DNA of 24,818 bases from Candidatus Methylopumilus sp. GTDB taxonomy: Bacteria > Pseudomonadota > Gammaproteobacteria > Burkholderiales > Methylophilaceae. The position numbers and the translations under genes were made by a program. Positions 5,157 to 24,174 of this stretch are shown here, piece after piece. Every line of letters starts with the position of its first letter. Within the stretch, counting starts at the first letter, position 1. The notes beneath the pieces were generated by a model, which was not told the origin of the DNA, searched no databases, and saw only the letters and a list, made by a program, of their open reading frames with translations. Location of the stretch: NCBI GenBank assembly GCA_041662005.1, contig JBAZTJ010000028.1:1-24818 (forward strand), in the 5' to 3' direction.

Positions 5157-7078
5157 GTCCTTTTGTATTGCCTTGCCCACGCGCACTACTCCTCGCCCTG
5201 CTCAGCACTTTGCTGGTCGCTTGCGGCGGTGGAGGCAGCGCTAGCAGTTCATCCTCCAGCAGCGTCAATTGCAGCTTCCCGATAGCCAGCACACCGCAGT
5301 CATTAACTGCGGCTGAAACCGAACGCATTATTGCCCAGGCCGAGCAGGCTGCCATGAGTGTTGGGGCACAGGCAACCATTGCAGTCGTCGACCGCGTTGG
5401 TAACGTATTGGGTGTTTACAACACAGCCGGCAATGCTGCAGCGACTGTCAACCTGCGCAGCGGCAGGGCACTTACCAGCTTTCCACAGGGTCTGGATGGA
5501 TTGGACAACACCATTCCCGCCTCTTTGGCAGCCATTGCCAAAGCCGTTACTGGCGCCTATCTATCCTCCTCTGGCAATGCATTCAGCACACGCACTGCCA
5601 GCTATATCATCCAGGAACATTTTCCACCGACGGTGGATTTCCAGGCTGGCGGTCCGTTGTTTGGTGTGCAGTTCAGCCAGCTGCCTTGTGGTGATTTCGT
5701 TACCCGCGGCATAGGGGCAACCACCGGACCAAAACGCTCGCCTCTTGGGCTTGCCGGCGATCCTGGCGGCTTCCCGATATATAAGAATGGCGTAGTGGTC
5801 GGCGGCATTGGCGTAATGTCTGATGGCGTTTATGGCATTGATTTGAACCCTGTTGCCGGCACTACAGACAGCGATGAAAGAATTGCGCAGTCCGCACTGG
5901 CTGGCTTTCAGGCTCCGGATTGCATACGTGCCAATCGAATTACACTGGGCGGCCAAACCCCGAGTTATAGCAATGCGGATAATGCATTGGTCTCCGTTAG
6001 CTCAACCACAGTGAATGCGGCTAACTTTATCGCAGTGCCAAGCTACTTCACCGCAGGGGCAGCGCTGGCGGGTAGAGCGTATGGCAATGCCGACTCCGGA
6101 TTTACCGCCGATGGCAGCGGAACCCTTGGCGCTGGTGCGTTTGTAGTCACCAACGGTGCGGCCAACCGATTTCCGGCCGTTGCATCCACCACCCCCGCAC
6201 CGGCAACTGGCTTGAGTGTCCCTGAAGTAACACAGATCATCAGCTCAGCCATAGGTGTCGCCAACCAGGCACGTGCACAGATTCGCCGCCCGCTCAACTC
6301 CCCGGCTCAAGTCACCGTTTCGGTAGTTGACCTTGACGGCAATGTATTAGGTGTTGCAAGAACGCCTGACGCGCCTGTCTTTGGGGCTGATGTTTCATTA
6401 CAAAAAGCCCGAACAGCCGCATTCTTCTCAAGCGCTAATGGAGGTGCCACGATCAATGCTCAATCGAACGTGACCTACCTGCTGGCAGGCCCTACTATTA
6501 CTTTAAGCAGTTACGTATCTGCTTCCAACACCTTTGGCAGCACAGGTTTCACCGGAACCACGGCATTCTCTGCGCGAGCCATAGGCAACATTGCACGGCC
6601 GTTTTTCCCCGACGGTATCAACGGGGCACCTAATGGCCCGCTATCAAAGCCAATTAATATATGGAGCCCTTTCAGTACAGGCTTGCAACTCGACCTTGTT
6701 TACAACGCGTTAACCTTTGCAATTCTTAATCCTGCCGATGCAAATGCCGACTGCAGCGCATCGCCGCCAGCAGCAGGAATAGGCCGCATTCAAAATGGTA
6801 TCCAGATATTCCCGGGCGGCGTCCCCATCTACCGCGGCAGCACTTTAATTGGAGCGATCGGCGTCTCTGGCGACGGCGTAGATCAGGATGACATGATTGC
6901 ATTCCTCGGCTTGAGCCGTGCTGGCACTGCGCTTGGTAACGTTATAGGCAATGCCCCATCGGGTATCAGAGCCGACACTCTGAGTATTCCTGGACAAAGT
7001 TCAGGTTTACGTTACGTTAACTGCCCGCAATCGCCCTTTATTAACAGCAATGCCCAGAACGTCTGCGCAGGGATTTAA
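5153..7078 (+). CDS. Lipoprotein with two tandem GlcG/DUF336 (HbpS-like heme-binding) domains and a poly-Ser linker. It is translationally coupled through a TTG start.
   Basis: Lipobox LLVAC-GGGG. Two copies of the DUF336 signature: ATIAVVDRVGNVLGV...GGFPIYKNGVVVGGIGVMSDG and VTVSVVDLDGNVLGV...SLQKARTAAFF...GGVPIYRGSTLIGAIGVSGDGVDQDDMIAFLGL. RBS AGGAG 7 nt upstream of TTG 5153. Confidence 0.85.
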   Translation: MSPFVLPCPRALLLALLSTLLVACGGGGSASSSSSSSVNCSFPIASTPQSLTAAETERIIAQAEQAAMSVGAQATIAVVDRVGNVLGVYNTAGNAAATVNLRSGRALTSFPQGLDGLDNTIPASLAAIAKAVTGAYLSSSGNAFSTRTASYIIQEHFPPTVDFQAGGPLFGVQFSQLPCGDFVTRGIGATTGPKRSPLGLAGDPGGFPIYKNGVVVGGIGVMSDGVYGIDLNPVAGTTDSDERIAQSALAGFQAPDCIRANRITLGGQTPSYSNADNALVSVSSTTVNAANFIAVPSYFTAGAALAGRAYGNADSGFTADGSGTLGAGAFVVTNGAANRFPAVASTTPAPATGLSVPEVTQIISSAIGVANQARAQIRRPLNSPAQVTVSVVDLDGNVLGVARTPDAPVFGADVSLQKARTAAFFSSANGGATINAQSNVTYLLAGPTITLSSYVSASNTFGSTGFTGTTAFSARAIGNIARPFFPDGINGAPNGPLSKPINIWSPFSTGLQLDLVYNALTFAILNPADANADCSASPPAAGIGRIQNGIQIFPGGVPIYRGSTLIGAIGVSGDGVDQDDMIAFLGLSRAGTALGNVIGNAPSGIRADTLSIPGQSSGLRYVNCPQSPFINSNAQNVCAGI

Positions 7079-7080
7079 TC

Positions 7081-9138
7081 GTGAACATACCTAAAAAATA
7101 TCTGCTGACGATTATCAATGCCGCGCTGATGGCATCCCTGGCACAACCGGCGTTTGCAGAGGAGCAGCCAGCAAAGGCCCAACCCGCAGGCATCCAATTA
7201 CAGGTGCTGTCGCCAACGATCAAGGTCTATGCATCCCCGCAGGCCGATGCTCTTTTGCTGTACGAAATCCCCAAAGGCAATTTGCTGGATGTGATCGAGC
7301 AGCAGGGTAACTGGTTCAAGATCAAGGTCAACTCCTACCAGGAGTTTGGCTGGGTGCGTCAGGAGCCCTGGGAGTATGGCGAACTGACGCTTTCGGTGCT
7401 GCCGAATAAAGGCGAGGTGAGTTATGCGCAAGAGCAGGTTGGCGCTACAGCACCTGAGGATGCGCCACAAACCAGGCAGTTTCAACCGGCAAAACCGAAT
7501 GTGATTGCCACATTGCCCCCGATCGACTCAGAACAGGTACCAGCGCCCAGCCCCAACCTGCCTCGCGAAACCATCCCTATCCAGGATCGCTGGCGCATCA
7601 TGCAGGCGCTGGGTTTCAAGTTTCCGTGGTATGACCCGTTTAACCAGAATCACTTGAAGGGCGATTTACCCGTACTTAAGGAATGGGGCGAAGACCTGTT
7701 CTTTAACTTGGGCGTGATCTCCGACACGGTAATCGAGTCCAGAAGAGTGGCGACGCCTGTCGCCAACCAGGTTTCAACTGGGCCTGGGGCTAACAACACT
7801 TACGGCGGTAGCGAGCAATTCATCTTCAACCAGAACCTGATTCTGAGTTTTAGCCTGACCAAGGGCAATACTACATTCAAACCGCCTGAGTATGAATTCA
7901 GGTTTGTGCCGGTGCTGAATTACAACTTTGCCGATGTGAAAGAAGCAGGCGTGTTGAATGCCGACCCCAGAAAAGGCACGACCCGCGAAGATGGCTTTGT
8001 CGGCGTGCAGGAACTGTTTGCCGACGTGCATTTGCGCAATGTGTCGGATCGCTATGACTTCGACAGTATCCGTGTAGGCATACAGCCTTTCATCAGCGAT
8101 TTCAGGGGTTTCCTGTTCCAGGATACGCCGTTCGGTGTGCGTCTATTCGGCAACCGCGCTAACAACCGTTACCAGTACAACGTGGCCTGGTTCCGCCGTA
8201 TGGAAAAAGATACCAACAGCGGCCTCAATGATGTGGGGCAGAGCCTGCGCAACGACGACATTTATGCTGCCAATCTGTATATGCAGGATTTCCCGGCACG
8301 TGGCTTTACTTCGCAAGTCTCGGTTACGCACAACCGTAATAACGAAAAGCAGCGCGAGTACGACACTAACGACTTTCTGGTGCGGCCTGCATTGCTGGGC
8401 GACTTACGCCCGCATTCTTATGAAGTCACCTATCTGGGTTATACCGGTGACGGCCATTTCGGAAAATGGAGCCTCTCCACATCCAGCTACCTGGCCGTTG
8501 GTAGCGATTCACGCAGCCCGATAGCGCAAACCAAACAGGATATTTTTGCGGGTTTCCATGCCTCCGAGTTGGCGCGCGACTTCGACTGGATACGTTTGCG
8601 AGGCAACCTGTTATTAGCCTCCGGTGACAAGAATCCTTACGATGACAAATCTACCGGCTTTGACGCTATTCTGGAAAACCCGCAGTTTGCCGGCGCATCC
8701 ACCAGCTATTACATACGTCAGAGCATCCCCCTCATTGGTGGCGGTGGCGTTGGACTATCAGGACGTAACGGTTTGCTGCCCTCTTTGCGGTCTTCGCCCA
8801 TCCAGGGACAATCCAATTTCGCCAACCCTGGCCTGGTGCTATTAGGGCTTGGCGCCGACTTTGACCTGGGCCCGCAGCTCCGCGTGTTTGGCAATATCTC
8901 CGACCTGCATTTCATGAACACCTCTTCGCTAGGCGTGTTGCGCAACGAGGAAATCCCGTCGAAACATCTTGGTGTAGATGCTTCGGTAGGCTTCCACTGG
9001 CGGCCCTTGTTTAACCAGAACATTATCATCAACGGTTCGATGGGCGCTTTAATGCCGGGTGATGGTCTGAAGCAGTTATACGGTAATGACCAGAGCACTT
9101 TGTATTCCGCATTAATCAATGCCTTGATTACTTACTAA
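7081..9138 (+). CDS. Outer-membrane beta-barrel protein with an N-terminal SH3b-like domain. It is a candidate porin/sheath partner for the adjacent cytochromes.
   Basis: GTG start with AGGGA RBS. Signal peptide ...ASLAQPAFA-EE. SH3b-like IQLQVLSPTIKVYASPQADALLLYEIPKGNLLDVIEQQGNWFKIKV. About 520 aa of alternating hydrophobic/beta-rich sequence, ending in an aromatic residue (…ALITY). Confidence 0.75.
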   Translation: MNIPKKYLLTIINAALMASLAQPAFAEEQPAKAQPAGIQLQVLSPTIKVYASPQADALLLYEIPKGNLLDVIEQQGNWFKIKVNSYQEFGWVRQEPWEYGELTLSVLPNKGEVSYAQEQVGATAPEDAPQTRQFQPAKPNVIATLPPIDSEQVPAPSPNLPRETIPIQDRWRIMQALGFKFPWYDPFNQNHLKGDLPVLKEWGEDLFFNLGVISDTVIESRRVATPVANQVSTGPGANNTYGGSEQFIFNQNLILSFSLTKGNTTFKPPEYEFRFVPVLNYNFADVKEAGVLNADPRKGTTREDGFVGVQELFADVHLRNVSDRYDFDSIRVGIQPFISDFRGFLFQDTPFGVRLFGNRANNRYQYNVAWFRRMEKDTNSGLNDVGQSLRNDDIYAANLYMQDFPARGFTSQVSVTHNRNNEKQREYDTNDFLVRPALLGDLRPHSYEVTYLGYTGDGHFGKWSLSTSSYLAVGSDSRSPIAQTKQDIFAGFHASELARDFDWIRLRGNLLLASGDKNPYDDKSTGFDAILENPQFAGASTSYYIRQSIPLIGGGGVGLSGRNGLLPSLRSSPIQGQSNFANPGLVLLGLGADFDLGPQLRVFGNISDLHFMNTSSLGVLRNEEIPSKHLGVDASVGFHWRPLFNQNIIINGSMGALMPGDGLKQLYGNDQSTLYSALINALITY

Positions 9139-9196: not shown

Positions 9197-12100
9197 ATGA
9201 GAAGTATGCTTTTTAATCACTCTTTAAAGTCTAGCGTTTATCGTGCCGGTTCGATTGTTGCGCTTGCGTTCCTGGTCCTGTTGCCCATCAACGGGATTTC
9301 ATCGGAGGAGCATCTAACGCATCGCGATTACACGGTAGCGCCTGATGCGCCAAAAACGCAGACGGAAGCAGCTGCTAAAGAGAAATCTGACGGCTGCATG
9401 AGTTGCCATAGCGCGACAGACAGACACACCATGCACGCCAACCCTGGCGTCATTATTGGCTGTACCGACTGTCATGGCGGCAATGCTGCCGTGGCTGTTA
9501 ATAAACATGTCAGTGAGGGTGACCACAAAGCTGCAGAGTATCGCGAAGCCATGGAAAAAGCCCACGTGTTGCCGCGTGATGAGAAATTGTGGAGCTCCTC
9601 GGCAAACCCCCAGGTTTCCTATGCCAGGCTCAACAAAGAGCACCCAGCCTTTATCCGCTTTATCAACCCTGGCGACTTGCGCATAGCACGCCAAGCCTGC
9701 GGCAGCTGCCATTTGCCTATCATCCAGGCACAAGAACGCAGCCTGATGTCGACATCTGCCATGCTGTGGGGCGGTGCCGCCTACAACAACGGCATACTGC
9801 CTTACAAGCGATATATCATCGGTGAGGCATACACCCATGATAGTGAGCCGGCGGCGCTTGTTAACCCGATCAAGCCAGACAATGATTTATTCATGTTCAA
9901 AGGCATACTGGACAGGCTCTACCCATTGCCTGCCTGGGAAACCATTCCCCCCGCCGATATTTTTCGGGTGTTCGAACGGGGCGGCCGCGTCATCAACAGC
10001 ACCTTCCCCGAAGTTGGTTTGCCTAACAGCTCCGGCACGCTGCAAAAACTGGATGAACCGGGTCGTCCCGATATCAAGCAATCCAACCGCGGGCCGGGCA
10101 CCGGCAGCAACATCGCCGTGCCTGTTATCAATATCACCAAAACCCGTTTGAATGACCCGCACCTGTGGTTTCTCGGCACTAATGAGCAAGCGGGCGATTA
10201 CCGCTCATCCGGCTGTAGCGGCTGCCATAGCATCTATGCCAATGACCGTGACCCTTTGCACTCAGGCCCTTATGCCAAGTTTGGCAACAGTGGCAGCACG
10301 CAGACCATAGACCCCACGATTCCCAAAGACGAATCCGGCCACCCGCTCAAGCATGAATTTACGCGCGCCATTCCATCCTCACAGTGCATGGTCTGCCATA
10401 TGCACCAGCCCAATATTTTCGTGAATTCGTTCTATGGCTACACCATGTGGGATTACGAATCCGATGCGCCCAGTATGTGGCCGGAAAAACAGACATACCC
10501 TACCGATGCCGAGATACGCGCCATCAACGAGCGCAACCCTGAGGAAGCAGCCATCCGCGGTAAGTGGAGCGACCCGGATTTCCTGAAAAATGTCTCCACC
10601 CTCAACCCCACGCTCAAAGACACGCAATTTGCCGACTATCACGGGCACGGCTGGAACTTCCGCGCGATTTTCAAGCGCAACCGCAAGGGCGCACTGCTGG
10701 ATGCCAAGGGTAATATCGTCGATGACAATGATCCCAAGAAATTCAGCAAAGCCGTACACCTCAGCTCTATCCACATGGATATCGGCATGCAGTGCGTGGA
10801 CTGCCACTTCGCGCAGGACATGCACGGCAATGGCCATATCTATGGTGAAGTAGCGGCGGCGATTGAGGTCGACTGTTCCGACTGCCACGGCACCGCGACC
10901 ACCTACCCTACCCTGCACACCTCCGGCCCGGCCGCACGCCCGGGTGGCTTGGACCTGACCACCCTCACCACGCAGGATGGACGTCGCCGCTTTGAATGGA
11001 TAGATGGCAAACTGATCCAGCGCTCAGCCATTGACCCCAACAAAGAATGGGAAATGTCGCTGGTGAAAGATACCGTCAACCCCAACCACCCAAAATACAA
11101 TGCCAAGGCGGCACGTGCCAAGTTGATGGGCGCCGGCGAAGAAGGACAACAAGGGCAATGGGGGCTGGGAGTCAAAAAGCTCGCGCATGACAACAGCAAG
11201 ATGACCTGCTTTACCTGCCATTTATCATGGACCACCAGCTGCGCCGGTTGTCATTTGCCGATACAGGCCAACTGGAAAACAGAGCGTCACCATTATGAAG
11301 GCGGCGAGACCAGAAATTACGCCACCTACAACCCGCAAGTAGCGCGCGATGAAATGTTCCAGCTCGGCCTGAGCGGACCGGTGAAAGGGTCCAAGGTCAC
11401 CCCTGTGCGCTCCAGTTCGGCGCTGATCCTGTCCTCGACCAACAGCAATCGCGAGCGGATTTATATCCAGCAGCCGCCTATCGCTGCCAGTGGTTTCTCA
11501 TCGCAGGCTTTTGCCCCGCACTACCCGCATACCGAGCGCAAGGAAGAAACCAAGACCTGCACCGACTGCCATGTCTCCAAAGACAATGACAACAACGCCA
11601 TCATGGCGCAGCTGCTGCTACAGGGCACCAACTTCGTCAATTTTGTCGGCTTCAACGCATGGCTGGGCGAAGCGCATCATGTCGAAGCAGTCACCGTGAC
11701 CGAGTGGGACGAGCCCCAGGCGGTGATCGGCAGTTATCTGCAACGCTACGCTTACCCGGATTACTTCAAGGCGCATCAGGATCGCAAGCTGGAGCTGCCT
11801 GAAGCCTTTGATCATGGCGCCGCCGATAATGTTAACTGCCTGCAGATGCGCGGCGAGTATCTTTACGCGGCCGAAGGCAAAGGCGGTTTCCGCGTTTACG
11901 ATATTGCCAATATTGGTAATAAGGGTGTAGCCCAGCGCATCATCACCGCACCATTTTCATCGATAGGCCAGGACACGCACGTAGCCAGCAAAAATGCCAC
12001 CTGCATGGCATTGCCCACCAATCAGTCGATTGCACCCTCCAGGAATCCGGATGAAAGCAAGGACAAAGCACGCTTTGAGCTGATGCGTAAAACTAATCAG

Positions 12101-13039
12101 GAGCAGGCCTTCCACCCCATCTACCACTACGCCTTCATCACCGATGCCGTAGAGGGACTGATTGCCGTGGATGTGGACACGCTGGCGGATGGCGAACCCC
12201 GCAACAACTTCCTCAAGCGCGCTGTCACCTGGAACCCGGATGGCCTGCTCAACAATGCGCGCCACATTACCCTGGGCGGGCATTACGCCTATGTCGCCAC
12301 TCCCAAGGGCATGGTGATTCTGGACCTGGATAATCCGCTCAAGCCTAAACACATCAAGACCATCGCGCTGGATGATGTCAGAGGCTCAGCAGTGCAGTTC
12401 CGCTACCTGTTTGTAACCGACCCCAGCGGGTTGCGGGTGGTGGATATTACCAAGCCGAAAGAGCCTGTTTTGTTACCGGCACAGATTCCACTGGCCAATG
12501 CACAAAAACTCTATCTCGCCAGAACCTATGCCTACGTAGCAGCGGCCGAGCAAGGCCTGGCTATCATTGATATCGAGAAGCCGGAAAGCCCTGTCGTTTA
12601 TCAGATGTACACCGCGGACGGCAAACTCAATGACGCACGTGATGTGGTTGTAGGCACCACTAACGCCTCACTATTTGCCTATGTGGCTGACGGTAAAAAT
12701 GGCCTGAAAGTCGTACAATTGACAGCACCGGATACGCAACCGCGCTTCTACGGTTTTTCACCGGACCCCAAGCCCAACCTAATTGCCTGGCGCAATACCC
12801 AGTCAGCAGCGCTGGCAGTTTCCAAGGGGCTGGACCGTGACCGCGCAGTAGATGAAACCGGGCACCAGATCGCCGTATTCGGGCGCATCGGGTCACGGCC
12901 ATTCAACCGCAGTGAGATGGATAAGCTCTATATGCGCCCGGATGGCAATATATGGACAGTCAGTGACAAACCTAACGATAAAGACATGATTCCTAAAAAA
13001 TCAGCCAAGCCAGCGCCCTCGCAGGAGCAGATTCGATAA
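9197..13039 (+). CDS. Large secreted decaheme c-type cytochrome fused to a C-terminal LVIVD-repeat beta-propeller.
   Basis: Signal peptide. 10 CxxCH motifs spread over about 790 aa (CMSCH, CTDCH, CGSCH, CSGCH, CMVCH, CVDCH, CSDCH, CFTCH, CAGCH, CTDCH). The C-terminal ~480 aa carry at least 6 LVIVD-type repeats (GGFRVYDIANIG, GLIAVDVDTLADG, GMVILDLDNPLKP, GLRVVDITKPKEP, GLAIIDIEKPESP, GLKVVQLTAPDT). Confidence 0.9.
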   Translation: MRSMLFNHSLKSSVYRAGSIVALAFLVLLPINGISSEEHLTHRDYTVAPDAPKTQTEAAAKEKSDGCMSCHSATDRHTMHANPGVIIGCTDCHGGNAAVAVNKHVSEGDHKAAEYREAMEKAHVLPRDEKLWSSSANPQVSYARLNKEHPAFIRFINPGDLRIARQACGSCHLPIIQAQERSLMSTSAMLWGGAAYNNGILPYKRYIIGEAYTHDSEPAALVNPIKPDNDLFMFKGILDRLYPLPAWETIPPADIFRVFERGGRVINSTFPEVGLPNSSGTLQKLDEPGRPDIKQSNRGPGTGSNIAVPVINITKTRLNDPHLWFLGTNEQAGDYRSSGCSGCHSIYANDRDPLHSGPYAKFGNSGSTQTIDPTIPKDESGHPLKHEFTRAIPSSQCMVCHMHQPNIFVNSFYGYTMWDYESDAPSMWPEKQTYPTDAEIRAINERNPEEAAIRGKWSDPDFLKNVSTLNPTLKDTQFADYHGHGWNFRAIFKRNRKGALLDAKGNIVDDNDPKKFSKAVHLSSIHMDIGMQCVDCHFAQDMHGNGHIYGEVAAAIEVDCSDCHGTATTYPTLHTSGPAARPGGLDLTTLTTQDGRRRFEWIDGKLIQRSAIDPNKEWEMSLVKDTVNPNHPKYNAKAARAKLMGAGEEGQQGQWGLGVKKLAHDNSKMTCFTCHLSWTTSCAGCHLPIQANWKTERHHYEGGETRNYATYNPQVARDEMFQLGLSGPVKGSKVTPVRSSSALILSSTNSNRERIYIQQPPIAASGFSSQAFAPHYPHTERKEETKTCTDCHVSKDNDNNAIMAQLLLQGTNFVNFVGFNAWLGEAHHVEAVTVTEWDEPQAVIGSYLQRYAYPDYFKAHQDRKLELPEAFDHGAADNVNCLQMRGEYLYAAEGKGGFRVYDIANIGNKGVAQRIITAPFSSIGQDTHVASKNATCMALPTNQSIAPSRNPDESKDKARFELMRKTNQEQAFHPIYHYAFITDAVEGLIAVDVDTLADGEPRNNFLKRAVTWNPDGLLNNARHITLGGHYAYVATPKGMVILDLDNPLKPKHIKTIALDDVRGSAVQFRYLFVTDPSGLRVVDITKPKEPVLLPAQIPLANAQKLYLARTYAYVAAAEQGLAIIDIEKPESPVVYQMYTADGKLNDARDVVVGTTNASLFAYVADGKNGLKVVQLTAPDTQPRFYGFSPDPKPNLIAWRNTQSAALAVSKGLDRDRAVDETGHQIAVFGRIGSRPFNRSEMDKLYMRPDGNIWTVSDKPNDKDMIPKKSAKPAPSQEQIR

Positions 13040-14382
13040 TGAAAACACTACAGAGACTCAGCATAAAACTATGGCTGGCCACTAGCCTACTTTTGAGTCT
13101 GGCCACCAGCGCCCATGCCACCATGCCCAACCTGTCGCATGACCAGACAGTGGGTTCGGTAAATTGTGCGAACAGCTTTTGCCACGGCTCGATAACGCAT
13201 TGGGATGAATCCAATGTGCTGCAGAATGAATACACCACCTGGGAGCGTCTGGACCGGCATACCCAAACCTACCAGGTATTGCTCAACAAGCAATCCAAGC
13301 TGATCGCCAAAAACCTGGGCCTGAAAAAACCTGCCCATGAGTCCAAAGTCTGCCTGGATTGCCATGCGCATAACCCGGCTGCGGATCAACGCGGCGAACG
13401 TTTCATCATGAGCGAAGGCGTGGGCTGCGAGGGTTGCCATGGCCCGGCCGGACGCTGGATCAAGTCGCACACGCTGGCGGGCGCCAGCCATGCCGACAAC
13501 ATTGAAAACGGACTTTACCCGACTGACTCGCCTGTAGCGCAGGCCAAGCTTTGCCTGTCTTGCCATTTTGGCGACCAGAACCGCTTTATCACCCACCGCA
13601 TCATGGGGGCCGGGCATCCACGCATCTCTTTTGAACTGGAGACCTTTACTGCCATCCAGCCCGCCCACTTCCGTATCGATGATGATTGGCACAAACGTAA
13701 AGGGGATTACAACCCGATCAAGGTCTGGGCCATTGGCCAGGTCATCGCCTCACAGCAGTTGCTGAATGCGTTTGCCGACCCTAAGCTGGGACGGGACGGC
13801 ATCTTCCCCGAACTGGTATTGTTTGATTGCCATGCCTGCCACCACCCCATGAGCGAGAAAAAATGGACACCGCGCCTGGGCGTTGGCCCTGGCCGTATCC
13901 GCCTGAATGACAGCAACCTGCTGATGCTACGTGCCATTGTGCGAGTGGTCGATGCCAGCAATGCAGCAGAATTTAACAAGCGCATCATGCAGATGCACCA
14001 GGCAGTTTCTGGTAATGGCGACCCTACCGGCATCAGCCCGACCGAGTCTGCGCAAAAGGTAGCGGCATCGCTGGAAACCTACGTTACGCTGATCAAAAAC
14101 CAGAGCTTCAACCTGCCGCAGCTCAAGCAGGTGTATCAGGCTTTGATTGATGAAGCGATTGATGGCCAGTTCTCGGATTATGCTGGCGCTGAGCAAGCCT
14201 ATATGGCCATCTCCAACCTGTCGCTGTCATTGGCAAAAATGGGCGGATTGAAGTCAGCGCCAGAGGTGAATCGCCAGTTGGCAAACATGCGTAAAACGCT
14301 CACCAATGACGAAACGTACCAACCCAAAGTATTTGCCAAACAATTGGCTGATTTGAAATATACCGTATCGCAAGCGAGGTAA
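13039..14382 (+). CDS. Periplasmic pentaheme c-type cytochrome (c554/NrfB-like motifs) with a heme-free helical C-terminal domain. Its start overlaps the upstream stop (TAATG).
   Basis: Signal peptide ...ATSAHA. 4 CxxCH motifs (CLDCH, CEGCH in GVGCEGCHGPAG, CLSCH, CHACHH) plus one CX4CH (CANSFCH). RBS GGAG upstream. Confidence 0.85.
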   Translation: MKTLQRLSIKLWLATSLLLSLATSAHATMPNLSHDQTVGSVNCANSFCHGSITHWDESNVLQNEYTTWERLDRHTQTYQVLLNKQSKLIAKNLGLKKPAHESKVCLDCHAHNPAADQRGERFIMSEGVGCEGCHGPAGRWIKSHTLAGASHADNIENGLYPTDSPVAQAKLCLSCHFGDQNRFITHRIMGAGHPRISFELETFTAIQPAHFRIDDDWHKRKGDYNPIKVWAIGQVIASQQLLNAFADPKLGRDGIFPELVLFDCHACHHPMSEKKWTPRLGVGPGRIRLNDSNLLMLRAIVRVVDASNAAEFNKRIMQMHQAVSGNGDPTGISPTESAQKVAASLETYVTLIKNQSFNLPQLKQVYQALIDEAIDGQFSDYAGAEQAYMAISNLSLSLAKMGGLKSAPEVNRQLANMRKTLTNDETYQPKVFAKQLADLKYTVSQAR

Positions 14383-14385
14383 GCC

Positions 14386-16884
14386 ATGAGTCAGCCCAAT
14401 ATCAATCCGAGCAAAAGTAGCCATGCAGACATGCTGTTTGCCGAGGCGGAAGCGCAATACGACATTATTATCGTAGGCTCAGGCCCGGCAGGGCTTTCCG
14501 CCGCGGCACATGCCAAGGCATTGGGCGCCAGCCATCTACTGCTGGAAGCAGAAAGCCACACGGCAGATACCATCTACAAATATCAGAAACGTAAACACGT
14601 GATGGCTGAGCCCGGCATCATCCCATTACGCTCAGACCTCAAGTTTGCTGAGGGCCTGCGCGAGACAGTCCTGCAAAACTGGGATGATGGAATCACAGGC
14701 CTTGGTGTCAATATTGAGTATGGCAAGCGTGTTAATTTCCTGCAACGCGACGAAGCCAGCCGCACCTTTACTATCAAGTGCGAGGACGGGAGCGAATATA
14801 CCTCACGCACCGTTGTTCTCGGCATTGGCCTGCAAGGCAACCTGCGCAAACTGGGTGTGCCAGGTGAACATGCGCAGAGCGTGCAATACACCCTATCCGA
14901 CCCAGATGAATTCAAGGGTGAAACCATCATCGTGATTGGCGCTGGTGATGCCGGGATTGAAAATGCACTCGCCTTGATGGGACAGAACACCGTTTACATC
15001 CTTAACCGCCAAACCGAATTTGCGCAGTGCAAAGAAGGCAACCGCAATTTAATTACCAAAGCGGAAAAGTCAGGCAGTATCAACGTACGCTACAGCGCCA
15101 ACACGGTGCGTATTGATGAGGCCGACCGCAGCACCAACAAAGATTTACCACCGTATATTTTCGTTTTCAACGACAAAGACGGTGAAGCTGCCGTGCCTTG
15201 CCATCGGGTAATTGCACGTCTGGGTGCTACAGCCCCGCGCAAGCAGGTGGAAAGCTTCGGCATCAAATTCCCGAATGACAACCCGGCATCTGTGCCGGTG
15301 CTGTCAGAGCGCTACGAGTCCAATGTGCCCGGCTTGTTCATCGTCGGTGCGCTGGGTGGTTACCCACTGATCAAGCAGGCCATGAACCAGGGTTACGAGG
15401 TAGTGGAAACCATCCTTGGTCGTGAAATCGAGCCTGTCGATGAACCACTATTAAAAAATAAAATCCGGCCATGGCGGCCATTATCGACCGTCTCGGAAGC
15501 GCTGGACTTCATACTCCACGGAGTACCGCTGTTCCAGGCCATGTCCAAGCTGCAACTGCGCGAATTCATGCTGGACTCGACCATACTGACGCCACGTAAA
15601 GGCTCGGTTGTCTTTAAAAAGCTGGACTATACCAACACTTTCTTCTCCATTGTGGAAGGCGATGTAGAAGTCGAGATTGAAGACAAGGATGGCAAGAAAA
15701 AACGGATCAAGCTGCCCACAGGCTCCTTCTTTGGTGAAATGGGGCTGATTTCCGGTCGACGCCGCACCGCTACCGTATTTGCCGGCGAACGCTGCGTGCT
15801 GCTGGAAACCCCCCGTAATACCATGCTGCGCCTCATTGCCGCAGTGGATGATGTGCGTCGCCAGATTGATGAATCTTTCCTGCGCAATGCGATTTACAAC
15901 TACATTGGCCCCATGCTGAGCCGTGAAGCCGTGGATGCGCTGGTCAACAGCGGGGTAGAAAAACGCAAATACCAGGCTAACCAGGTGCTGTTCAGTGAGG
16001 GCGATGATGCTGATGGTTTGTATCTGGTGCGTAGTGGCTCGCTGACCGTATCCAAAGTCATCGATAACCAGGAAAAAATCCTGTCCTACGTTTCTGCCGG
16101 CAATTACGTCGGAGAAATGGCACTGGTCAACAACTCCAAACGCACCGCCACAGTAAAAGCTGCCGTGTATACCGAGGTTTTGGTACTCAAGGCCGATGCC
16201 TTCAAGCAACAGCTTGCCCTCAATCCCGCATGGCGCCAGGCTATCGAAAGCGTGATGGCGGAACGTACCCGTGCCAACGTAATGGCCACCGAAAAAACCG
16301 GCCAGGAAAGCGACTTGATACGCTTCATGCTCAAGCAAGGCCTGGGCGAGGCTTCTGATGTACTCATCATCAACGAGTCCATGTGCATCCAATGCAATAA
16401 CTGTGAAACCGCGTGTGCCGAAACGCACAAAGGTACCTCACGCCTGAAACGGGAGGCTGGCCCTTCTTTTGCCAACTTCCACCTGCCCGTAGCTTGCCGC
16501 CATTGCGAAAATCCCAGCTGCATGAAGGATTGCCCACCGGATGCGATTACCCGCTCCAAGGAAGGCGAAGTGTTCATCAGCGATGCTTGTATAGGTTGCG
16601 GCAATTGTGAGCGTAATTGCCCTTATGGCGTGATCCAGATGGCTGTACAAAAACCGCCGAAAATGGGTGCCAACATGCTCTGGCTGTTATTTGGCCTAGG
16701 CGCAGCCCCTGGTGAGAGGCAGCCGGATTATGACCCGAATGCCGCCAAAAAAGCCGTCAAATGTGACCTGTGCTCCGGCCAGAGTGGTGGCCCGGCATGC
16801 GTGCGGGCATGCCCTACCGGTGCCGCCATACGCACATCGCCGGAAAAAATCTTTAAACCCATCAGCATGGGCTTTGATGAATAA
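14386..16884 (+). CDS. Multidomain redox protein: a TrxR-like FAD/NAD(P)-binding oxidoreductase lacking the CxxC, two cyclic-nucleotide-binding domains, and two 2x[4Fe-4S] ferredoxin domains. Predicted soluble.
   Basis: GxGxxG (VGSGPAGLSAAAHA) and a second Rossmann motif (VIGAGDAGIE). cNMP-binding signatures FFGEMGLISGRRRTATVFA and YVGEMALVNNSKRTATVKA. Cys clusters CIQCNNCETAC / CRHCENPSC..DCP / CIGCGNCERNCP / CDLCSG...CVRACP. Strong RBS GAGGTAA. Confidence 0.9.
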   Translation: MSQPNINPSKSSHADMLFAEAEAQYDIIIVGSGPAGLSAAAHAKALGASHLLLEAESHTADTIYKYQKRKHVMAEPGIIPLRSDLKFAEGLRETVLQNWDDGITGLGVNIEYGKRVNFLQRDEASRTFTIKCEDGSEYTSRTVVLGIGLQGNLRKLGVPGEHAQSVQYTLSDPDEFKGETIIVIGAGDAGIENALALMGQNTVYILNRQTEFAQCKEGNRNLITKAEKSGSINVRYSANTVRIDEADRSTNKDLPPYIFVFNDKDGEAAVPCHRVIARLGATAPRKQVESFGIKFPNDNPASVPVLSERYESNVPGLFIVGALGGYPLIKQAMNQGYEVVETILGREIEPVDEPLLKNKIRPWRPLSTVSEALDFILHGVPLFQAMSKLQLREFMLDSTILTPRKGSVVFKKLDYTNTFFSIVEGDVEVEIEDKDGKKKRIKLPTGSFFGEMGLISGRRRTATVFAGERCVLLETPRNTMLRLIAAVDDVRRQIDESFLRNAIYNYIGPMLSREAVDALVNSGVEKRKYQANQVLFSEGDDADGLYLVRSGSLTVSKVIDNQEKILSYVSAGNYVGEMALVNNSKRTATVKAAVYTEVLVLKADAFKQQLALNPAWRQAIESVMAERTRANVMATEKTGQESDLIRFMLKQGLGEASDVLIINESMCIQCNNCETACAETHKGTSRLKREAGPSFANFHLPVACRHCENPSCMKDCPPDAITRSKEGEVFISDACIGCGNCERNCPYGVIQMAVQKPPKMGANMLWLLFGLGAAPGERQPDYDPNAAKKAVKCDLCSGQSGGPACVRACPTGAAIRTSPEKIFKPISMGFDE

Positions 16885-16922: not shown

Positions 16923-18680
16923 TTGTTATCACCTGAAAGTATCGACTCACCACTCTTGTTAAAGCCGTATGTGAAGGCCGTACATCAGCGGACAAATGGC
17001 ATTGCCATGCTTCCAACGAACCATGATAATGTATCCAAGCCTATGACTCAGCCTGTGATTCGCGGATTTCCCAGTAAATTAGAAGATCGCTTAAGTGTTC
17101 CACTTAAACGCTGGGATATCTACGTCGCAGAAGGCCGCTTTGAACAGTTCATCGAGTTCACAGTCGCGGTCAACAGCCTGACTGAACATTTCAATGCCTT
17201 GCGCCTGCCGGGTTTGGTACGTTTATGCACAGGCCTGGAAAATGCAGCTCTCGACAAAATAGACGATGAGCACGCCCACCCGCTTTCGCAAGAGGATGTC
17301 CTACTACTGCAAAGCCAGATCAATGCACTGATAGGCGCTATCTCCACCCTGCAACCACCAGCGCCTGATAAACGTGCGAGTAAAACCGCCCCCATGCCCG
17401 ACCATGACTGGATCAAGCCGCGTTCAGTATGGGTGGTTGCCTCTCCAGAAAAACGCGGCATGGCAGAAGCGCTCGGCAGCCAACTTGGATTCTTTGGCTT
17501 CAAGGCATCACAGTTAGACTGGGATGCCACACCGTTAAACGCAGACATGCCTTTAGCCGTGCTTTTCATCCCCGCCAACAGCACAGCACATGCTGAAGAG
17601 CTGGCTTGTATCGCCAATATTCGCGCTGCATACCCTACCAGCCAGTTAATCTATCTTGGCGAACAATCGAGTATCGAGCCTATCGTCGCCCTCATGCGTA
17701 CCGGCATCGACATCACGATCCCGTTTGAGGATCAGCCTTCCAGAGTGCTTAACTGCATCCTGGATCTGGTAAAGAGCAATGATCAGGAGAAAAGCCGCGT
17801 ACTAATCGTGGAAGATTCGCGCGTCGCTGTCACTGTGATTCAACGCACTTTGACAGAACATGGCATTGATACCCATGCCATCAACGATCCGGGAGAGTTG
17901 CTGACTGTGCTTGCGTCCTACCGTCCGGACCTGATCCTGATGGATATGTATATGCCCCGCTTCAATGGTATTGAGGCTACCCGCGTATTGCGCCAGCTGG
18001 CTGATTACAGTTCGCTGCCTATTGTGTATGTATCAGGCGAATCCGAAGTGAGTATGCAGGTTGAGGCTTTACGTCTGGGAGGCGACCAGTTTCTCATCAA
18101 GCCGTTCAACCCGGTGCTGCTGGCAGCCGTCGTCAAAACCAAGATCGAACGCTATCGTGAAGCCCAGCGTTCCAGCCGTACAGATGGCCTGACCGGACTG
18201 CTGAACCATACCGCCGTTAAATCCGGCTTGAAATCCCTGGTTGACCAAATGCCGGCACAGGACTCGCTAACCGTCGCCATGATCGATATTGACCACTTCA
18301 AGTCCGTCAATGACACCTACGGCCACCCTGTTGGTGACCAGGTGATACGTAGTCTGGCGTGGCTACTCAAGGGACATCTGCGTTCAAACGACCTGATTGG
18401 CCGTTATGGTGGCGAAGAGTTTCTGCTGGCACTGCCTGGCATTAACATCGAACAGGCGGAGGCGGTCATCAACCAGATTCGTATAGACTTTGCAGCGCTA
18501 CCGCATGCGCATACCAATGGTTCGCTGTATTGCAGCTTCAGCGCCGGCATTGCTTGTTACAGCATAGCCGATACGGCAGACAGCCTGACAGAAGCCGCCG
18601 ATGATGCCTTGCTACAAGCCAAGCGCAATGGGCGCAACCGTATAGAAAAAGCCCCTGTTGACAAAAATTTGTTAGCCTGA
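16923..18680 (+). CDS. PleD-like response-regulator diguanylate cyclase (N-terminal extension, degenerate REC, REC, GGDEF). The start codon is uncertain.
   Basis: REC motif VLIVEDSRV...DLILMDMYMP...KP. GGDEF domain with active-site GGEEF (RYGGEEFLLALPG) and DxLTGL linker. Begins 38 nt after the cytochrome operon. Confidence 0.85.
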   Translation: MLSPESIDSPLLLKPYVKAVHQRTNGIAMLPTNHDNVSKPMTQPVIRGFPSKLEDRLSVPLKRWDIYVAEGRFEQFIEFTVAVNSLTEHFNALRLPGLVRLCTGLENAALDKIDDEHAHPLSQEDVLLLQSQINALIGAISTLQPPAPDKRASKTAPMPDHDWIKPRSVWVVASPEKRGMAEALGSQLGFFGFKASQLDWDATPLNADMPLAVLFIPANSTAHAEELACIANIRAAYPTSQLIYLGEQSSIEPIVALMRTGIDITIPFEDQPSRVLNCILDLVKSNDQEKSRVLIVEDSRVAVTVIQRTLTEHGIDTHAINDPGELLTVLASYRPDLILMDMYMPRFNGIEATRVLRQLADYSSLPIVYVSGESEVSMQVEALRLGGDQFLIKPFNPVLLAAVVKTKIERYREAQRSSRTDGLTGLLNHTAVKSGLKSLVDQMPAQDSLTVAMIDIDHFKSVNDTYGHPVGDQVIRSLAWLLKGHLRSNDLIGRYGGEEFLLALPGINIEQAEAVINQIRIDFAALPHAHTNGSLYCSFSAGIACYSIADTADSLTEAADDALLQAKRNGRNRIEKAPVDKNLLA

Positions 18681-18766: not shown

Positions 18767-20404
18767 ATGGCGTTACTAAATACCCTCTGCCGCTATTGCC
18801 ACCAAGTCACGCCTTACCGACTGATATTAATGCTATTGCTCGCGCTCTGTCCGTGGACAGTATGCCAGGCTAAGCCTTTCGAGCTAACCGGACAATGGTT
18901 ACAAGCCCCGCAGCAATGGCAGTACCAGCAACAAAGCCAACTCAATAGCCCTGCTCTGATACCAGTAACACATCCGAAACCAACCGGCGGGCATTACTTT
19001 TTCCAGGCAGATTTTGATGTCACCCAGCTAGGCACACTGGTGATTGATTTCAAAAATGCGAGCGTACTGGGCCAGTTCCGCCATTTTGTGTTTGATCGCC
19101 AAGGGCAACTGGTCGCCCAGGTTGAGGGCGGCATCCAGAACCACACTGCCAACCCCTTCTTTTTACGCCATGGCCGCGAGTTGCAACTGGCGCCTGGCAA
19201 CTACCGCCTGGTCACCGAACTATCTTCACCATTCTTCATCGCCCAGCCTCAGCCCTATATAGACTCCCTCGAAAATTACCGGCAAGCCATTAAGCCAGGC
19301 AATGCCCTGTCGCTGATCTGTATGGGCGTGTTCCTTGGTCTGGGCATTTATTATCTGACACTGGCTGGTGTGCGACAACGCAGAACGGAAAGCATGTATG
19401 CCCTGTTTATCCTGGGCAACCTGCTATACAACGGCACGGCACTACTCATTTTTCCGGATTTGTTCGGCACGCACTGGTTCTACCTGATTAGCATCCCTAT
19501 CCTGTTTTCCAATATTGCTTACGTACTCTTTGTGCAGTCGCTATTGGATATCCGGCGTGACCAGAACCCACGCCTCTACTGGGCCGGCATAGCCATCATA
19601 GGCCTGATGGTGGTCTTTATAGGCTTGGCGGCACTCTATCCAAACTGGTCGCTTGAATTTGATCGCTACGGCGTTGGGCTGTTCCTGACTTACGGCCTGG
19701 TCTCCGGGATCACCCGTGCCCGGCAGGGCAATCATTCTGCGCGCTATTATCTCGTAGCCATACTGGCGTTTTGTATATTAGGCTTTGGCGCCCTCACGCT
19801 GGGCGGTTTCGGTGGTGAATTTACACTCTATGTAGAACACCTGGGGCTGGTAGCGGTCACCGTCGAAGTAATACTGCTGGCGTTGGTGCTCTCCTATCAG
19901 TTCTCACAATTACACCGCGAAAAAGAACATGCACTGTCCAGCCTGAAACATACCCAGCACATCGCACTGACCGACGCCTTGACCGGACTACCCAACCGCT
20001 ATGCGCTTGAGGATAGCCTGGCACAGCTACCCGCCCACGGCAGCCTGACTTTTCTTGATATTGACGGGCTGAAATACTACAACGACCATTTCGGGCATGA
20101 CCGAGGCGATGTATTGCTGCGTGAATTTAGCCATATACTGCGTGAAAGTCTGGCATCACACGGCAAGCTGCATCGTCTGGGAGGCGATGAGTTTGCCATC
20201 ACCTGCCCAAGCGGCAACCTTGATCCCATTAAAATAGCCATATCGCAAACCATGGAAGCACTGCATGCGCGTGACTTCGAGTTCGCTGGCGCCAGCCATG
20301 GCTCTGTGCATATTCACGAGCATGAGGAAAGAGGCTATCTCATGCACATGGCTGATACGCGTATGTATGAAAGTAAACGCAACCGCAAAACATCAATAGA
20401 TTGA
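18767..20404 (+). CDS. 7TMR-DISM-type membrane diguanylate cyclase: a periplasmic sensor domain, a 7-TM region and a GGDEF domain.
   Basis: Signal peptide, an approximately 150-aa extracytoplasmic domain, seven hydrophobic helices, then LTGLPNRYALED...HRLGGDEFAITCP (GGDEF). Confidence 0.85.
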   Translation: MALLNTLCRYCHQVTPYRLILMLLLALCPWTVCQAKPFELTGQWLQAPQQWQYQQQSQLNSPALIPVTHPKPTGGHYFFQADFDVTQLGTLVIDFKNASVLGQFRHFVFDRQGQLVAQVEGGIQNHTANPFFLRHGRELQLAPGNYRLVTELSSPFFIAQPQPYIDSLENYRQAIKPGNALSLICMGVFLGLGIYYLTLAGVRQRRTESMYALFILGNLLYNGTALLIFPDLFGTHWFYLISIPILFSNIAYVLFVQSLLDIRRDQNPRLYWAGIAIIGLMVVFIGLAALYPNWSLEFDRYGVGLFLTYGLVSGITRARQGNHSARYYLVAILAFCILGFGALTLGGFGGEFTLYVEHLGLVAVTVEVILLALVLSYQFSQLHREKEHALSSLKHTQHIALTDALTGLPNRYALEDSLAQLPAHGSLTFLDIDGLKYYNDHFGHDRGDVLLREFSHILRESLASHGKLHRLGGDEFAITCPSGNLDPIKIAISQTMEALHARDFEFAGASHGSVHIHEHEERGYLMHMADTRMYESKRNRKTSID

Positions 20405-22728: not shown

Positions 22729-24174
22729 ATGTTTGATCTCATTAATTTTTTCCCCAGTTTTAATATAGTGACCTCCGCATTTGCATTTCTTGCATTCATC
22801 ATTCTACTTTCTGTTTGGCTCAGGCGCGTGGTGCCGACAAATGAAGTACACATCGTGCAATCTGGCAGTAAAACCATCTCATATGGCAACGGGCATGAGG
22901 CTGGGAACACCTATTTCGAATTTCCGGCATGGGTTCCAAAGCTAGGGGTTCTCGTATCTAAATACCCGGTTTCAGTGTTCTCGGAGGAACTGGTAGATTA
23001 CGAAGCCTACGATCAAGGACGGCTGCCTTTTGTCGTGGACGTAAAAGCCTTTTTCAGAATCAGTGATAGCAATACCGCAGCGCAGCGTGTCTCTTCATTT
23101 GAGGAAATGAAAAGCCAGCTAAATGCTATTTTGCAAGGTTGTGTGCGCAGCATTCTGGCTTCCAATGATATCGAATCCATCATGCAGGACCGCTCAAAAT
23201 TTGGTGAGGCATTTACCAAGGAAGTGGAAGCACAATTGGCTTCATGGGGTGTTTCAACTGTGAAAAGTATTGAGTTGATGGATATTCGAGATGCAGAGGG
23301 CTCTACTGTGATCCGCAACATCATGGACAAAAAGAAATCCCAGATAGAAATGGAAAGCCGTGTTGAAGTCGCAAAAAACAAGAAGCAGGCGGAAATTTCT
23401 GAAATTGATGCACAGCGCGAAACCGAAGTAAAAAAACAGGAGGCGCTGCAACAAGTGGGGATGCGTACTGCTGAGAAAGAGCGTGAAATCGGCATTGCCA
23501 ATGAAAAAGCCACTCAATCTATTTCAGAACAACAGAAAGTTACCAAAGAAAAGGAAATGGAAGTTGTGCAGGTGAGCGAAGTAAAGAAAGCTGAAATTGA
23601 TAAGCAAGTACAGGTGGTTGAGGCCGAAAAAATCCGGGAAACCTCTGTAATCAATGCAGAAGCCGAAAAGAAAACTTCGGTGATTAAGGCCGAAGCGGTA
23701 AAAGAGTCAACCTTAATCAAGGCTGAAGGGGAAAAGTCATCTTCAATTCTGATTGCAGATGGTAACTTCCAGGCCAAGCAATTTGAAGCTCAAGGGATAG
23801 AAAAAGAAGGTTCCGCCAAAGCTGCTGCTGAAAAAGCCATGCAACTGGCACTGGTGGAATCACAAATCACACTGGCCAAAGAAATCGGCACCAATGACGG
23901 CTATCAGCATTATCTGATTTCATTGAAGCAGGTCGAGGCGATTATTCAAGTAGGCACCGAACAGGCAAAAGCACTGGAGAAAGCTGACATTAAAGTCATC
24001 GCCAACGCCGGCGATGTTAATTCCGGCATCAACAAGGTGATGGACTTGTTCAGCGCCAATGGCGGAACCCAGATAGGCTCTATGCTGGAAGCCCTCTCAC
24101 AAACAGATGCAGGGAAGTCGCTAATTACCAAGTTTGCAGATAAGTCGGGATTAAAAACCCCAAAAACCGACTAG
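22729..24174 (+). CDS. Flotillin-family SPFH/band-7 protein with an N-terminal membrane hairpin and C-terminal E/A/K-rich flotillin repeats.
   Basis: N-terminal hydrophobic segment. SPFH-domain motifs. Repeated roughly 11-residue units (ETSVINAEAEKKTSVIKAEAVKESTLIKAEGEK). RBS AAGGA. The gene has noticeably lower GC than its neighbours. Confidence 0.85.
   Translation: MFDLINFFPSFNIVTSAFAFLAFIILLSVWLRRVVPTNEVHIVQSGSKTISYGNGHEAGNTYFEFPAWVPKLGVLVSKYPVSVFSEELVDYEAYDQGRLPFVVDVKAFFRISDSNTAAQRVSSFEEMKSQLNAILQGCVRSILASNDIESIMQDRSKFGEAFTKEVEAQLASWGVSTVKSIELMDIRDAEGSTVIRNIMDKKKSQIEMESRVEVAKNKKQAEISEIDAQRETEVKKQEALQQVGMRTAEKEREIGIANEKATQSISEQQKVTKEKEMEVVQVSEVKKAEIDKQVQVVEAEKIRETSVINAEAEKKTSVIKAEAVKESTLIKAEGEKSSSILIADGNFQAKQFEAQGIEKEGSAKAAAEKAMQLALVESQITLAKEIGTNDGYQHYLISLKQVEAIIQVGTEQAKALEKADIKVIANAGDVNSGINKVMDLFSANGGTQIGSMLEALSQTDAGKSLITKFADKSGLKTPKTD

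Follow-up and report, generated by a model that had tools for sequence, protein, structure and literature searches.

A fused flavin, cyclic-nucleotide-binding and iron-sulfur protein as the putative NAD(P)H input of a transmembrane multihaem cytochrome module

The closest described system to the one reported here is the putative ptdABCDEFG operon of marine bacteria, including Alphaproteobacteria UBA11136 and Nitrospirales, all examples of which come from saline habitats and whose function "remains completely unknown" (bioRxiv 10.1101/2023.11.21.568154). Its products are described as a pentahaem protein (PtdA), a porin (PtdB), an oxidoreductase of the flavin adenine dinucleotide (FAD)/NAD(P) type that resembles flavohaemoprotein (PtdC), a tetrahaem protein (PtdD), a protein with cyclic nucleotide monophosphate (cNMP)-binding and 4Fe-4S parts (PtdE), a ferric-reductase-like membrane protein (PtdF), and a decahaem protein (PtdG) (bioRxiv 10.1101/2023.11.21.568154). 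We analyzed a 24,818-nucleotide stretch of DNA from Candidatus Methylopumilus sp. of the Methylophilaceae (assembly GCA_041662005.1, contig JBAZTJ010000028.1, positions 1 to 24,818; "the window"), which carries a seven-gene module, g1 to g7, with multihaem cytochrome genes. The subject of this work is g7, the last of the seven in the window, which codes for a protein with flavin, tandem cNMP-binding, and iron-sulfur (Fe-S) parts. Going by the preprint's description, the C-terminal two-thirds of g7 correspond to PtdE, g1 to PtdF, and g2 to PtdG. A literature search with domain, host, and cluster terms gave no description of the module beyond this one preprint; g7, which is widespread and uncharacterized, is a fused variant of a kind that the literature has noticed a single time and has not analyzed. 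Domain content, conserved residues, and gene linkage are observed directly; from them we infer which cofactors are bound, that g7 docks on g1, that electrons flow outward, and that cNMP gates the transfer. Taken together, the sequence comparisons suggest, with a probability of about 60%, that g7 forms the cytoplasmic input end of a cNMP-gated, three-part transmembrane line that carries electrons from NAD(P)H to cytochromes.

The g7 gene (14386-16884, + strand, as are g1 to g6) starts with an ATG codon, which follows a GAGG ribosome-binding site (14376-14379, + strand) by 6 nt and the TAA stop codon of g6 (14380-14382) by 3 nt; this agrees with an earlier note on this DNA that had described a ribosome-binding site and a 3-nt spacing. 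The same note had proposed a fusion of flavin, two cNMP, and Fe-S parts in one open reading frame and the lack of any transmembrane (TM) segment. Both points hold: Pfam places all three parts on the 832-amino acid (aa) soluble protein, and a hydropathy scan of its full length reveals no TM segment. An identical protein is on record from a Methylophilaceae metagenome-assembled genome (MAG), where it is annotated as "cyclic nucleotide-binding domain-containing protein." The best NCBIfam matches of g7 are to YpdA, CRP (cyclic-nucleotide-binding, CNB, part only), Fe-S subunits of the AegA/HydN/DmsB type, and TrxR; all stay below the NCBIfam cut-offs, and by these scores g7 stands outside all named equivalogs. 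When the AlphaFold2 (AF2) model of g7 (predicted local distance difference test score, pLDDT, 77.6) was compared with structures in the PDB by Foldseek, only single-domain matches were obtained, and no solved protein spans the whole architecture. Membership of g7 in the Crp/Fnr family was rejected, as the CRP model scores 90.8 bits against a cut-off of 266 and covers the CNB part only. No helix-turn-helix (HTH) family is present among the Pfam matches of g7.

The N-terminal part of g7 (residues 25-336; 14458-15393, + strand) is covered by Pyr_redox_3 and Pyr_redox_2 in Pfam. Together with Foldseek and alignments, this identifies a TrxR/YpdA-like domain with two Rossmann folds for flavin and NAD(P)H, which lacks CxxC. 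The missing redox-active CxxC had been claimed before; indeed, none occurs in residues 1-360, and in a residue-level alignment the "CAVC" of lactococcal TrxR pairs with "TLSD" of g7. Conservation was followed in 62 full-length relatives with identities down to 32%, in all of which G31/G33/G36, E54, and G185/G187/D188 are invariant and both GxGxxG motifs are kept. Flavin binding by g7 is likely because both of these motifs and Glu54 are invariant. It is not certain, however, since "GA" stands in place of the C-terminal FAD motif "GD" (residues 321-323), with A322 invariant in the 62 homologs.

By hidden Markov model (HMM) and by fold, the flavin domain is closest to YpdA/Bdr (Foldseek TM score 0.85), followed by ferredoxin-NADP reductases (FNRs) of the TrxR type. 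The likeness to YumC-type enzymes drawn in the earlier note holds for the TrxR fold without CxxC, but YpdA/Bdr is nearer. The TrxR-type FNRs (YumC; PDB 2zbw, 3lzw, 6gar) and YpdA/Bdr (7a7b, 7a76) share this two-Rossmann fold with g7. In contrast to both, g7 (~20% identity) has its flavin domain fused to CNB and Fe-S modules and carries "GA" where the FAD "GD" motif is expected; YumC-type FNR is a stand-alone enzyme of ~330 aa. Neither named disulfide reductase family can take in g7. The YpdA/Bdr bacillithiol disulfide reductases (TIGR04018) were rejected at 93.1 bits against a curated cut-off of 339.9 and at ~20% identity despite the similar fold, and the thioredoxin-disulfide reductases (TrxR, TIGR01292) at 72.1 bits against 343.45, in addition to the lack of CxxC. 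Cys14 in the GGPCG motif of YpdA presumably corresponds to Ala in g7.

Two cNMP-binding domains follow, domain A at residues ~385-507 (15538-15906, + strand; phosphate-binding cassette 446-466) and domain B at residues ~510-636 (15913-16293, + strand; cassette 572-592), both placed by Pfam, alignment with the regulatory subunit of protein kinase A (PKA-R), conservation, and the AF2 model. The Pfam family cNMP_binding (PF00027) matches g7 in two stretches with 135.2 bits, compared with a gathering score of 27.5. Both cassettes are canonical (FFGEMGLISGRRRTATV and YVGEMALVNNSKRTATV). In such cassettes, contacts to the ribose and the cyclic phosphate are made by Gly-Glu and Arg-[ST]-Ala. These positions are well kept in domain A (G450, 62/62; E451, 61/62; R460, 48/62) and in domain B (G576, 59/62; E577, 49/62; R586, 52/62). 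Hence the domains are not degenerate, a possibility that the earlier note had named as fatal to its proposal: Gly-Glu and Arg are retained in 48-62 of the 62 relatives, depending on the position. The tandem CNB domains of PKA-R and of cGMP-dependent protein kinase (PKG) align as a unit to g7 residues 403-610; however, the PKA-R pair regulates a kinase, whereas the g7 pair sits between redox modules. Both g7 cassettes have the R-T-A-T-V form found in PKG, which is not enough to call cyclic GMP (cGMP) over cyclic AMP (cAMP) as the ligand.

The C-terminal part (residues 660-815; 16363-16830, + strand) is covered by Fer4_11, Fer4_9, and Fer4_7 in Pfam, Fer4_11 (PF13247) scoring 36.4 bits against a cut-off of 26.2. 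It contains 16 Cys in four groups, CxxCxxCxxxC, CxxCx4CxxxCP, CxxCxxCxxxCP, and CxxCx8CxxxCP, which are invariant in the 62 homologs and from which four [4Fe-4S] clusters are predicted. The top PDB match of the module is the formate hydrogenlyase subunit HycB (7z0s_B, E 3e-21), and another is HycB3/4 of HDCR (7qv7); Pfam, NCBIfam, PDB matches, and the 16 invariant Cys all point to a four-cluster ferredoxin module of the HycB/HydN/DmsB type. Two ferredoxin-type dicluster domains had been proposed. The 4Fe-4S Cys motifs are there, but, given the Cys grouping and the HycB type of the best solved relative, they would make up one four-cluster wire, not two independent domains. HycB, HydN, FdnH, and DmsB, which have four Cys groups with the same spacing, are wires that dock on membrane subunits. 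The g7 module differs from them in being a C-terminal domain and not a separate subunit, in its conserved added hydrophobic insert, and in its proposed partner, a novel 5-TM, probably dihaem protein. The insert, MLWLLFGLGAAPG at residues 762-776, lies between Fe-S groups III and IV, and W766, G770, G772, and G776 are invariant within it.

The proposed partner is the product of g1 (2598-3485, + strand), a 295-aa protein with five TM segments, assigned from a TM scan, invariant His residues, and an AF2 model (pLDDT 86.6). It has no Pfam match at default thresholds, and a PDB sequence search gave a single match at chance level (E 1.8). Below threshold, 51/53 g1 homologs match Ni_hydr_CYTB and 22/53 Ferric_reduct. 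Four His are invariant in the 53 homologs, H83/H97 on TM3 and H273/H287 on TM5, with one pair near each membrane face. Since they form H-x13-H twice, the pattern expected of two stacked bis-His b haems, g1 is probably a dihaem cytochrome b (PtdF-like). A strongly basic loop behind TM2 indicates an N-in topology by the positive-inside rule, by which the ~135-residue helical loop between TM4 and TM5 also falls on the cytoplasmic side. The next gene, g2 (3501-5156, + strand), codes for a 551-aa decahaem c-type cytochrome (10 CxxCH; Cytochrome_C7, Cytochrom_c3_2, and Paired_CXXCH_1 in Pfam) with one N-terminal TM anchor (residues 26-44), and is PtdG-like. The membrane link that g1 would provide, and which the earlier note had overlooked, makes an electron path from cytoplasm to periplasm physically plausible.

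Full-length relatives of g7 were present in at least 535 species genomes when one genome per species was scanned, and more than 120 clusters share 56-90% identity over the full length, with hosts that include Janthinobacterium, Duganella, Undibacterium, Limnobacter, Silanimonas, and Moraxellaceae. An exhaustive HMMER search returned 827 clusters (50% identity) at E<1e-30, with the complete architecture found down to 32% identity. Gene order was compared in 84 loci, three of which lack the flank needed to decide. In every one of the 81 informative loci g7 lies inside the seven-gene module. The order g1-g2-g3-g4-g5-g6-g7 of the window is found in 56 loci; in 24, mostly from Lysobacterales and Steroidobacteraceae, g7 comes first, directly before g1, and g2-g3-g4-g5 follow; in the remaining locus g2-g5 stand directly upstream of g7 and g6 is displaced. 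The module was also recognized from Pfam marks of called genes in Janthinobacterium, Limnobacter humi, and a Silanimonas-type contig. In one Janthinobacterium locus, an IS110-family transposase (L001, 12591-13742) directly follows the g7 homolog, beyond which the conserved module does not extend. The constant adjacency to multihaem cytochrome genes, which the earlier note had wanted checked, is thus borne out, and g7 is not common in unrelated contexts. The statement that g7 ends the operon is true of the window and of the 56 loci with its order, but not of the 24/84 in which g7 is first.

More distant relatives retain the core but differ in the input module. Relatives of ~450-480 aa (33% identity) lack the FAD domain and consist of the CNB domains and the four-cluster module only, with cassette residues and all 16 Cys kept. 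In three loci (L090, L091, L093) such a gene is followed by a g1-like gene and then by an anchored multihaem gene; the g1-like genes beside FAD-less relatives match the g1 profile at E 1e-18 to 1e-31 and have both H-x13-H pairs. In a further locus (L089, 4263-5801), a g1-like dihaem domain with two H-x13-H and a multihaem part with at least 5 CxxCH form one polypeptide, a Rosetta-stone fusion reminiscent of Geobacter CbcL, which stands directly after the FAD-less gene.

A metagenome scan with a four-sequence alignment added 80 loci (L095-L174), mostly from soil and peat. None of the 80 has the TrxR-like domain. In 75 of them, a g1-like gene directly follows the CNB-FeS gene, with a 10-CxxCH gene next where the sequence allows; the other five have no g1-like match, mostly as contigs end just past the gene. 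A module similar to the NuoG N terminus (2Fe-2S, His-type 4Fe-4S, and two 4Fe-4S) is fused before the CNB domains in 56/80 loci, and a NuoE-NuoF fusion gene lies directly upstream in 47/80, as in L126 (5602-9473). The protein encoded after this fusion joins the NuoG-like FeS module to two or three CNB domains and to the four-cluster part. NuoE-NuoF is the NADH- and FMN (flavin mononucleotide)-binding module of complex I. About 24 loci have a shorter form of ~520 aa in which Pfam reads three CNB stretches. Genes like g6 (c554-like) and g5 (multihaem LVIVD) were present in both metagenome loci checked for them. In both fused architectures examined, the CNB domains are placed between the input module and the four-cluster wire. 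We conclude that three unrelated NAD(P)H-oxidizing modules, TrxR-like, NuoEF/G-like, and the FNR-like PtdC, serve one core of CNB-FeS protein, dihaem b, and decahaem proteins. Nothing argues more strongly than this convergence that cytoplasmic NAD(P)H supplies the electrons of the core.

These data lead us to propose the following path. NAD(P)H would reduce the flavin in the TrxR/YpdA-like domain of g7. By way of its HycB-like wire with four [4Fe-4S] clusters, electrons would then reach the pair of b haems in g1, cross the membrane to the anchored decahaem protein g2, and go on to periplasmic or outer g6 and g5. g7 would dock on g1 through the cytoplasmic helical loop of the latter; this loop and the hydrophobic insert of g7 (residues 762-776) are candidates for the contacts. 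The two PKA-R-like cNMP domains, lying between input domain and output wire, would place this transfer under the control of a second messenger. Such an export route would bypass quinones and, as the membrane potential assists it, would conserve no energy; an on/off gate would therefore make physiological sense. The earlier proposal of a cytoplasmic, cNMP-regulated oxidoreductase that exchanges electrons with periplasmic haems is favored by the comparative evidence, namely the linkage in 81/81 loci and the predicted membrane link g1.

The gate is the part of this proposal most open to another reading, in which g7 is a constitutive NAD(P)H:cytochrome reductase and its CNB-fold domains serve as a spacer, as a dimerization element, or as a site for another ligand. 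Many bacterial CNB-fold domains do use other ligands (for example, CooA, NtcA, and CprK), and the window has no cyclase gene. Class III nucleotidyl cyclases, either CHASE2-cyclases or GAF-PAS-cyclases, adjoin the module in at least four lineages (the Limnobacter lineage with 8 loci, L009, L072, and L081), which can be read both ways: the adjacency is confined to few lineages, but it recurs in both gene orders. As a suggestive observation and not a statistical result, it backs a cyclic-nucleotide input. Retention of Gly-Glu and Arg-[ST]-Ala in both domains, in fused, FAD-less, and NuoG-fused relatives alike, also argues for a cyclic-nucleotide ligand, and we consider an ungated reductase unlikely. 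In the Limnobacter lineage (L003/L010, 12487-22481; L011, L012, L015, L018, L020, L061), the CHASE2-adenylate/guanylate cyclase gene is convergent to g7 and is accompanied by FecR-like, two-partner secretion (TPS), and ShlB/POTRA genes; in L009, a CHASE2 cyclase and a ShlB gene occupy the same position.

The strongest form of our proposal is that the tandem domains are a true cAMP/cGMP switch, which opens and closes, post-translationally, a quinone-independent line that dumps NAD(P)H electrons via dihaem b to multihaem cytochromes, and that three unrelated dehydrogenase modules have been plugged into this gated core across several phyla. We hold it tentatively, at somewhat less than even odds. 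To our knowledge, it would be the first case of direct cyclic-nucleotide gating of electron flow in a respiratory-type redox chain.

Alternatively, g7 and g1 together could be an NAD(P)H:quinone oxidoreductase, with g1 quinone-reactive like FdnI/HyaC and the multihaem proteins drawing on the quinol pool. The best profile match of g1 is Ni_hydr_CYTB, whose members bind quinones, and cytochromes of this kind are the docking partners of four-cluster FeS subunits in Fdn and Nar. However, the fusion of g1-like and multihaem domains in L089 argues for direct transfer, the g1-like gene directly after the CNB-FeS gene in 75/80 loci has a decahaem gene next to it where the sequence allows, and no quinone-site motif was identified. 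Quinone reduction in place of direct transfer thus appears improbable. A quinone site on g1 is possible and would be compatible with the direct line to cytochromes, the two not being exclusive.

The direction of flow could also be inward, from periplasmic multihaem proteins via g1 and g7 to NAD(P)+, as in Tmc/Hmc of sulfate reducers. The layout of FeS protein, cytochrome b, and periplasmic multihaem protein does resemble TmcB/C/A and HmcF/E/A, and some hosts are lithotrophs in need of reverse electron flow (Ferrovum, L005, and the Nitrospirales of the ptd preprint). Yet inward transfer would run against the membrane potential towards -320 mV and would need very low-potential donors. To judge from record titles, most hosts come from groups known mainly as aerobic organoheterotrophs (such as Duganella, Janthinobacterium, Lysobacterales, and Limnobacter), and the NuoEF-type input modules of the relatives are classical NADH oxidizers. 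We favor outward flow because export is aided by the membrane potential, while the reverse requires donors well below -320 mV, and rate inward flow as a little less probable still than the quinone route. Least probable of all is a pure redox or second-messenger sensor without catalytic throughput, reporting periplasmic haem state or NAD(P)H level, an alternative raised in the earlier note: GGDEF genes do come after g7 in the window, but they are not conserved neighbors, Pfam reveals no output domain in g7, be it HTH, kinase, or GGDEF, its 16-Cys four-cluster wire and intact NAD(P)H site are hallmarks of an electron conduit, and elsewhere the same CNB-FeS core is coupled to NuoEF and fed by NADH-dehydrogenase modules.

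The remaining genes of the module code for exported proteins. g3 (5153-7078, + strand) encodes a 641-aa lipoprotein (lipobox LVAC-GGGG) with two HbpS/GlcG-like stretches (HbpS-like in Pfam) and is kept in the module; its best PDB match is of the EfgA/GlcG type, the best solved relative being EfgA (6bws, E 4e-9). EfgA is the formaldehyde sensor of Methylorubrum, a curious relative to find in a methylotroph MAG, yet g3 is also present in non-methylotroph hosts. g4 (7081-9138, + strand), likewise kept, encodes a 685-aa secreted protein with an N-terminal SH3_3 domain in Pfam and a C terminus ending in LITY, possibly an outer-membrane barrel. g5 (9197-13039, + strand) encodes a secreted protein of 1280 aa, in which Pfam and motif count identify 10 CxxCH and, at the C terminus, an LVIVD beta-propeller. 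No other gene of the module is as well conserved as g5 (59-78% identity from Beta- to Gammaproteobacteria, above g7), its sole named match being a weak one to ExtM, a selenite/tellurite-operon cytochrome (57 bits against a cut-off of 800), and it is a candidate for the terminal reductase or enzyme. PDB sequence searches with g4 and g5 found no relative. g6 (13039-14382, + strand) encodes a 447-aa periplasmic cytochrome, c554/c552-like by Pfam and motifs and perhaps PtdA-like, with a weak PDB match to the pentahaem c552 of T. tepidum (5ze8). With four CxxCH and one Cx4CH, the label "pentaheme" given to it earlier is fair.

Upstream of the module, a promoter-like site (TTGGCA-16-TATAAT; 2468-2495, + strand) with an 11/12 consensus match lies in the divergent intergenic region, where the number of promoter-like sites ahead of g1 is not above shuffled expectation. 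Cytochrome c maturation genes are found divergently upstream (1-2450, - strand). They comprise a CycH/CcmI-like gene (1152-2450, - strand; Ig_CycH and TPR_CcmH_CycH) and an open frame of 386 codons, perhaps ccmA-like, whose Walker A motif of the ABC ATPase type reads "GANGSGKTT" and which runs off the left window edge on the - strand; a ccmH-like gene also adjoins the module in L034. Downstream of g7 are two genes for diguanylate cyclases, a response-regulator-GGDEF gene (16923-18680, + strand), whose ~290 N-terminal residues have no Pfam match, and a 7TMR-DISM-GGDEF gene (18767-20404, + strand). A promoter-like site at 17002-17030 suggests that the first of these is transcribed separately and that its true start is later than the TTG at 16923. 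A functional tie between g7 and the GGDEF genes was rejected: they are conserved neighbors in 0/84 loci, and GGDEF genes are abundant in these genomes. Further downstream, an SPFH/Band 7 gene (22729-24174, + strand) has a G+C content of 0.45, compared with 0.53 for the window, and may have been acquired separately.

If the proposal is correct, many common soil and freshwater bacteria, among them Oxalobacteraceae, Limnobacter, Methylophilaceae, Lysobacterales, Steroidobacteraceae, and uncultured soil lineages, would possess a switchable, quinone-free route from NAD(P)H to periplasmic or outer multihaem cytochromes. This would bear on the reduction of extracellular iron, manganese, and humics, or the formation of extracellular reactive oxygen, by bacteria of groups known mainly as aerobes, as well as on the disposal of excess reductant. 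g7 is a defined, purifiable protein with which direct second-messenger control of electron transfer can be tested, and it offers a mechanistic handle on the ptd cluster.

Among functional analogues, Tmc/Hmc and NOX/FRE combine, as is proposed here, a redox module in the cytoplasm with a dihaem b that spans the membrane and an acceptor on the outer face; in NOX/FRE, electrons from NADPH are exported via two stacked b haems. However, g7 has no detectable homology to TmcB/HmcF (HdrD-like) or to the FNR-type dehydrogenase domain of NOX, and none of these systems has anything equivalent to its cNMP domains. The uet cluster of Tenderiales and the systems in a paper on candidate genes of iron-oxidizing bacteria (FeOB) were also considered and set aside as different from the module. 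The likeness to Ptd goes further. The core adjacency of CNB-FeS protein, ferric-reductase-like TM protein, and decahaem protein is present in the module, contiguous as g7-g1-g2 in 24 loci, and both PtdA and g6 weakly match the T. tepidum pentahaem c552. The flavin part of the module is fused and of the TrxR/YpdA type, whereas PtdC is separate and FNR/flavohaemoprotein-like; separate genes for a PtdC-like oxidoreductase or a tetrahaem PtdD are absent from the window. The preprint counts two clusters, compared with four cluster motifs in g7. The periplasmic set of the module is made up, in contrast to that of Ptd, of an HbpS-like lipoprotein, an SH3 protein, and a 10-haem LVIVD propeller. It occurs in Beta- and Gammaproteobacteria from freshwater and soil, whereas Ptd is reported from saline habitats only.

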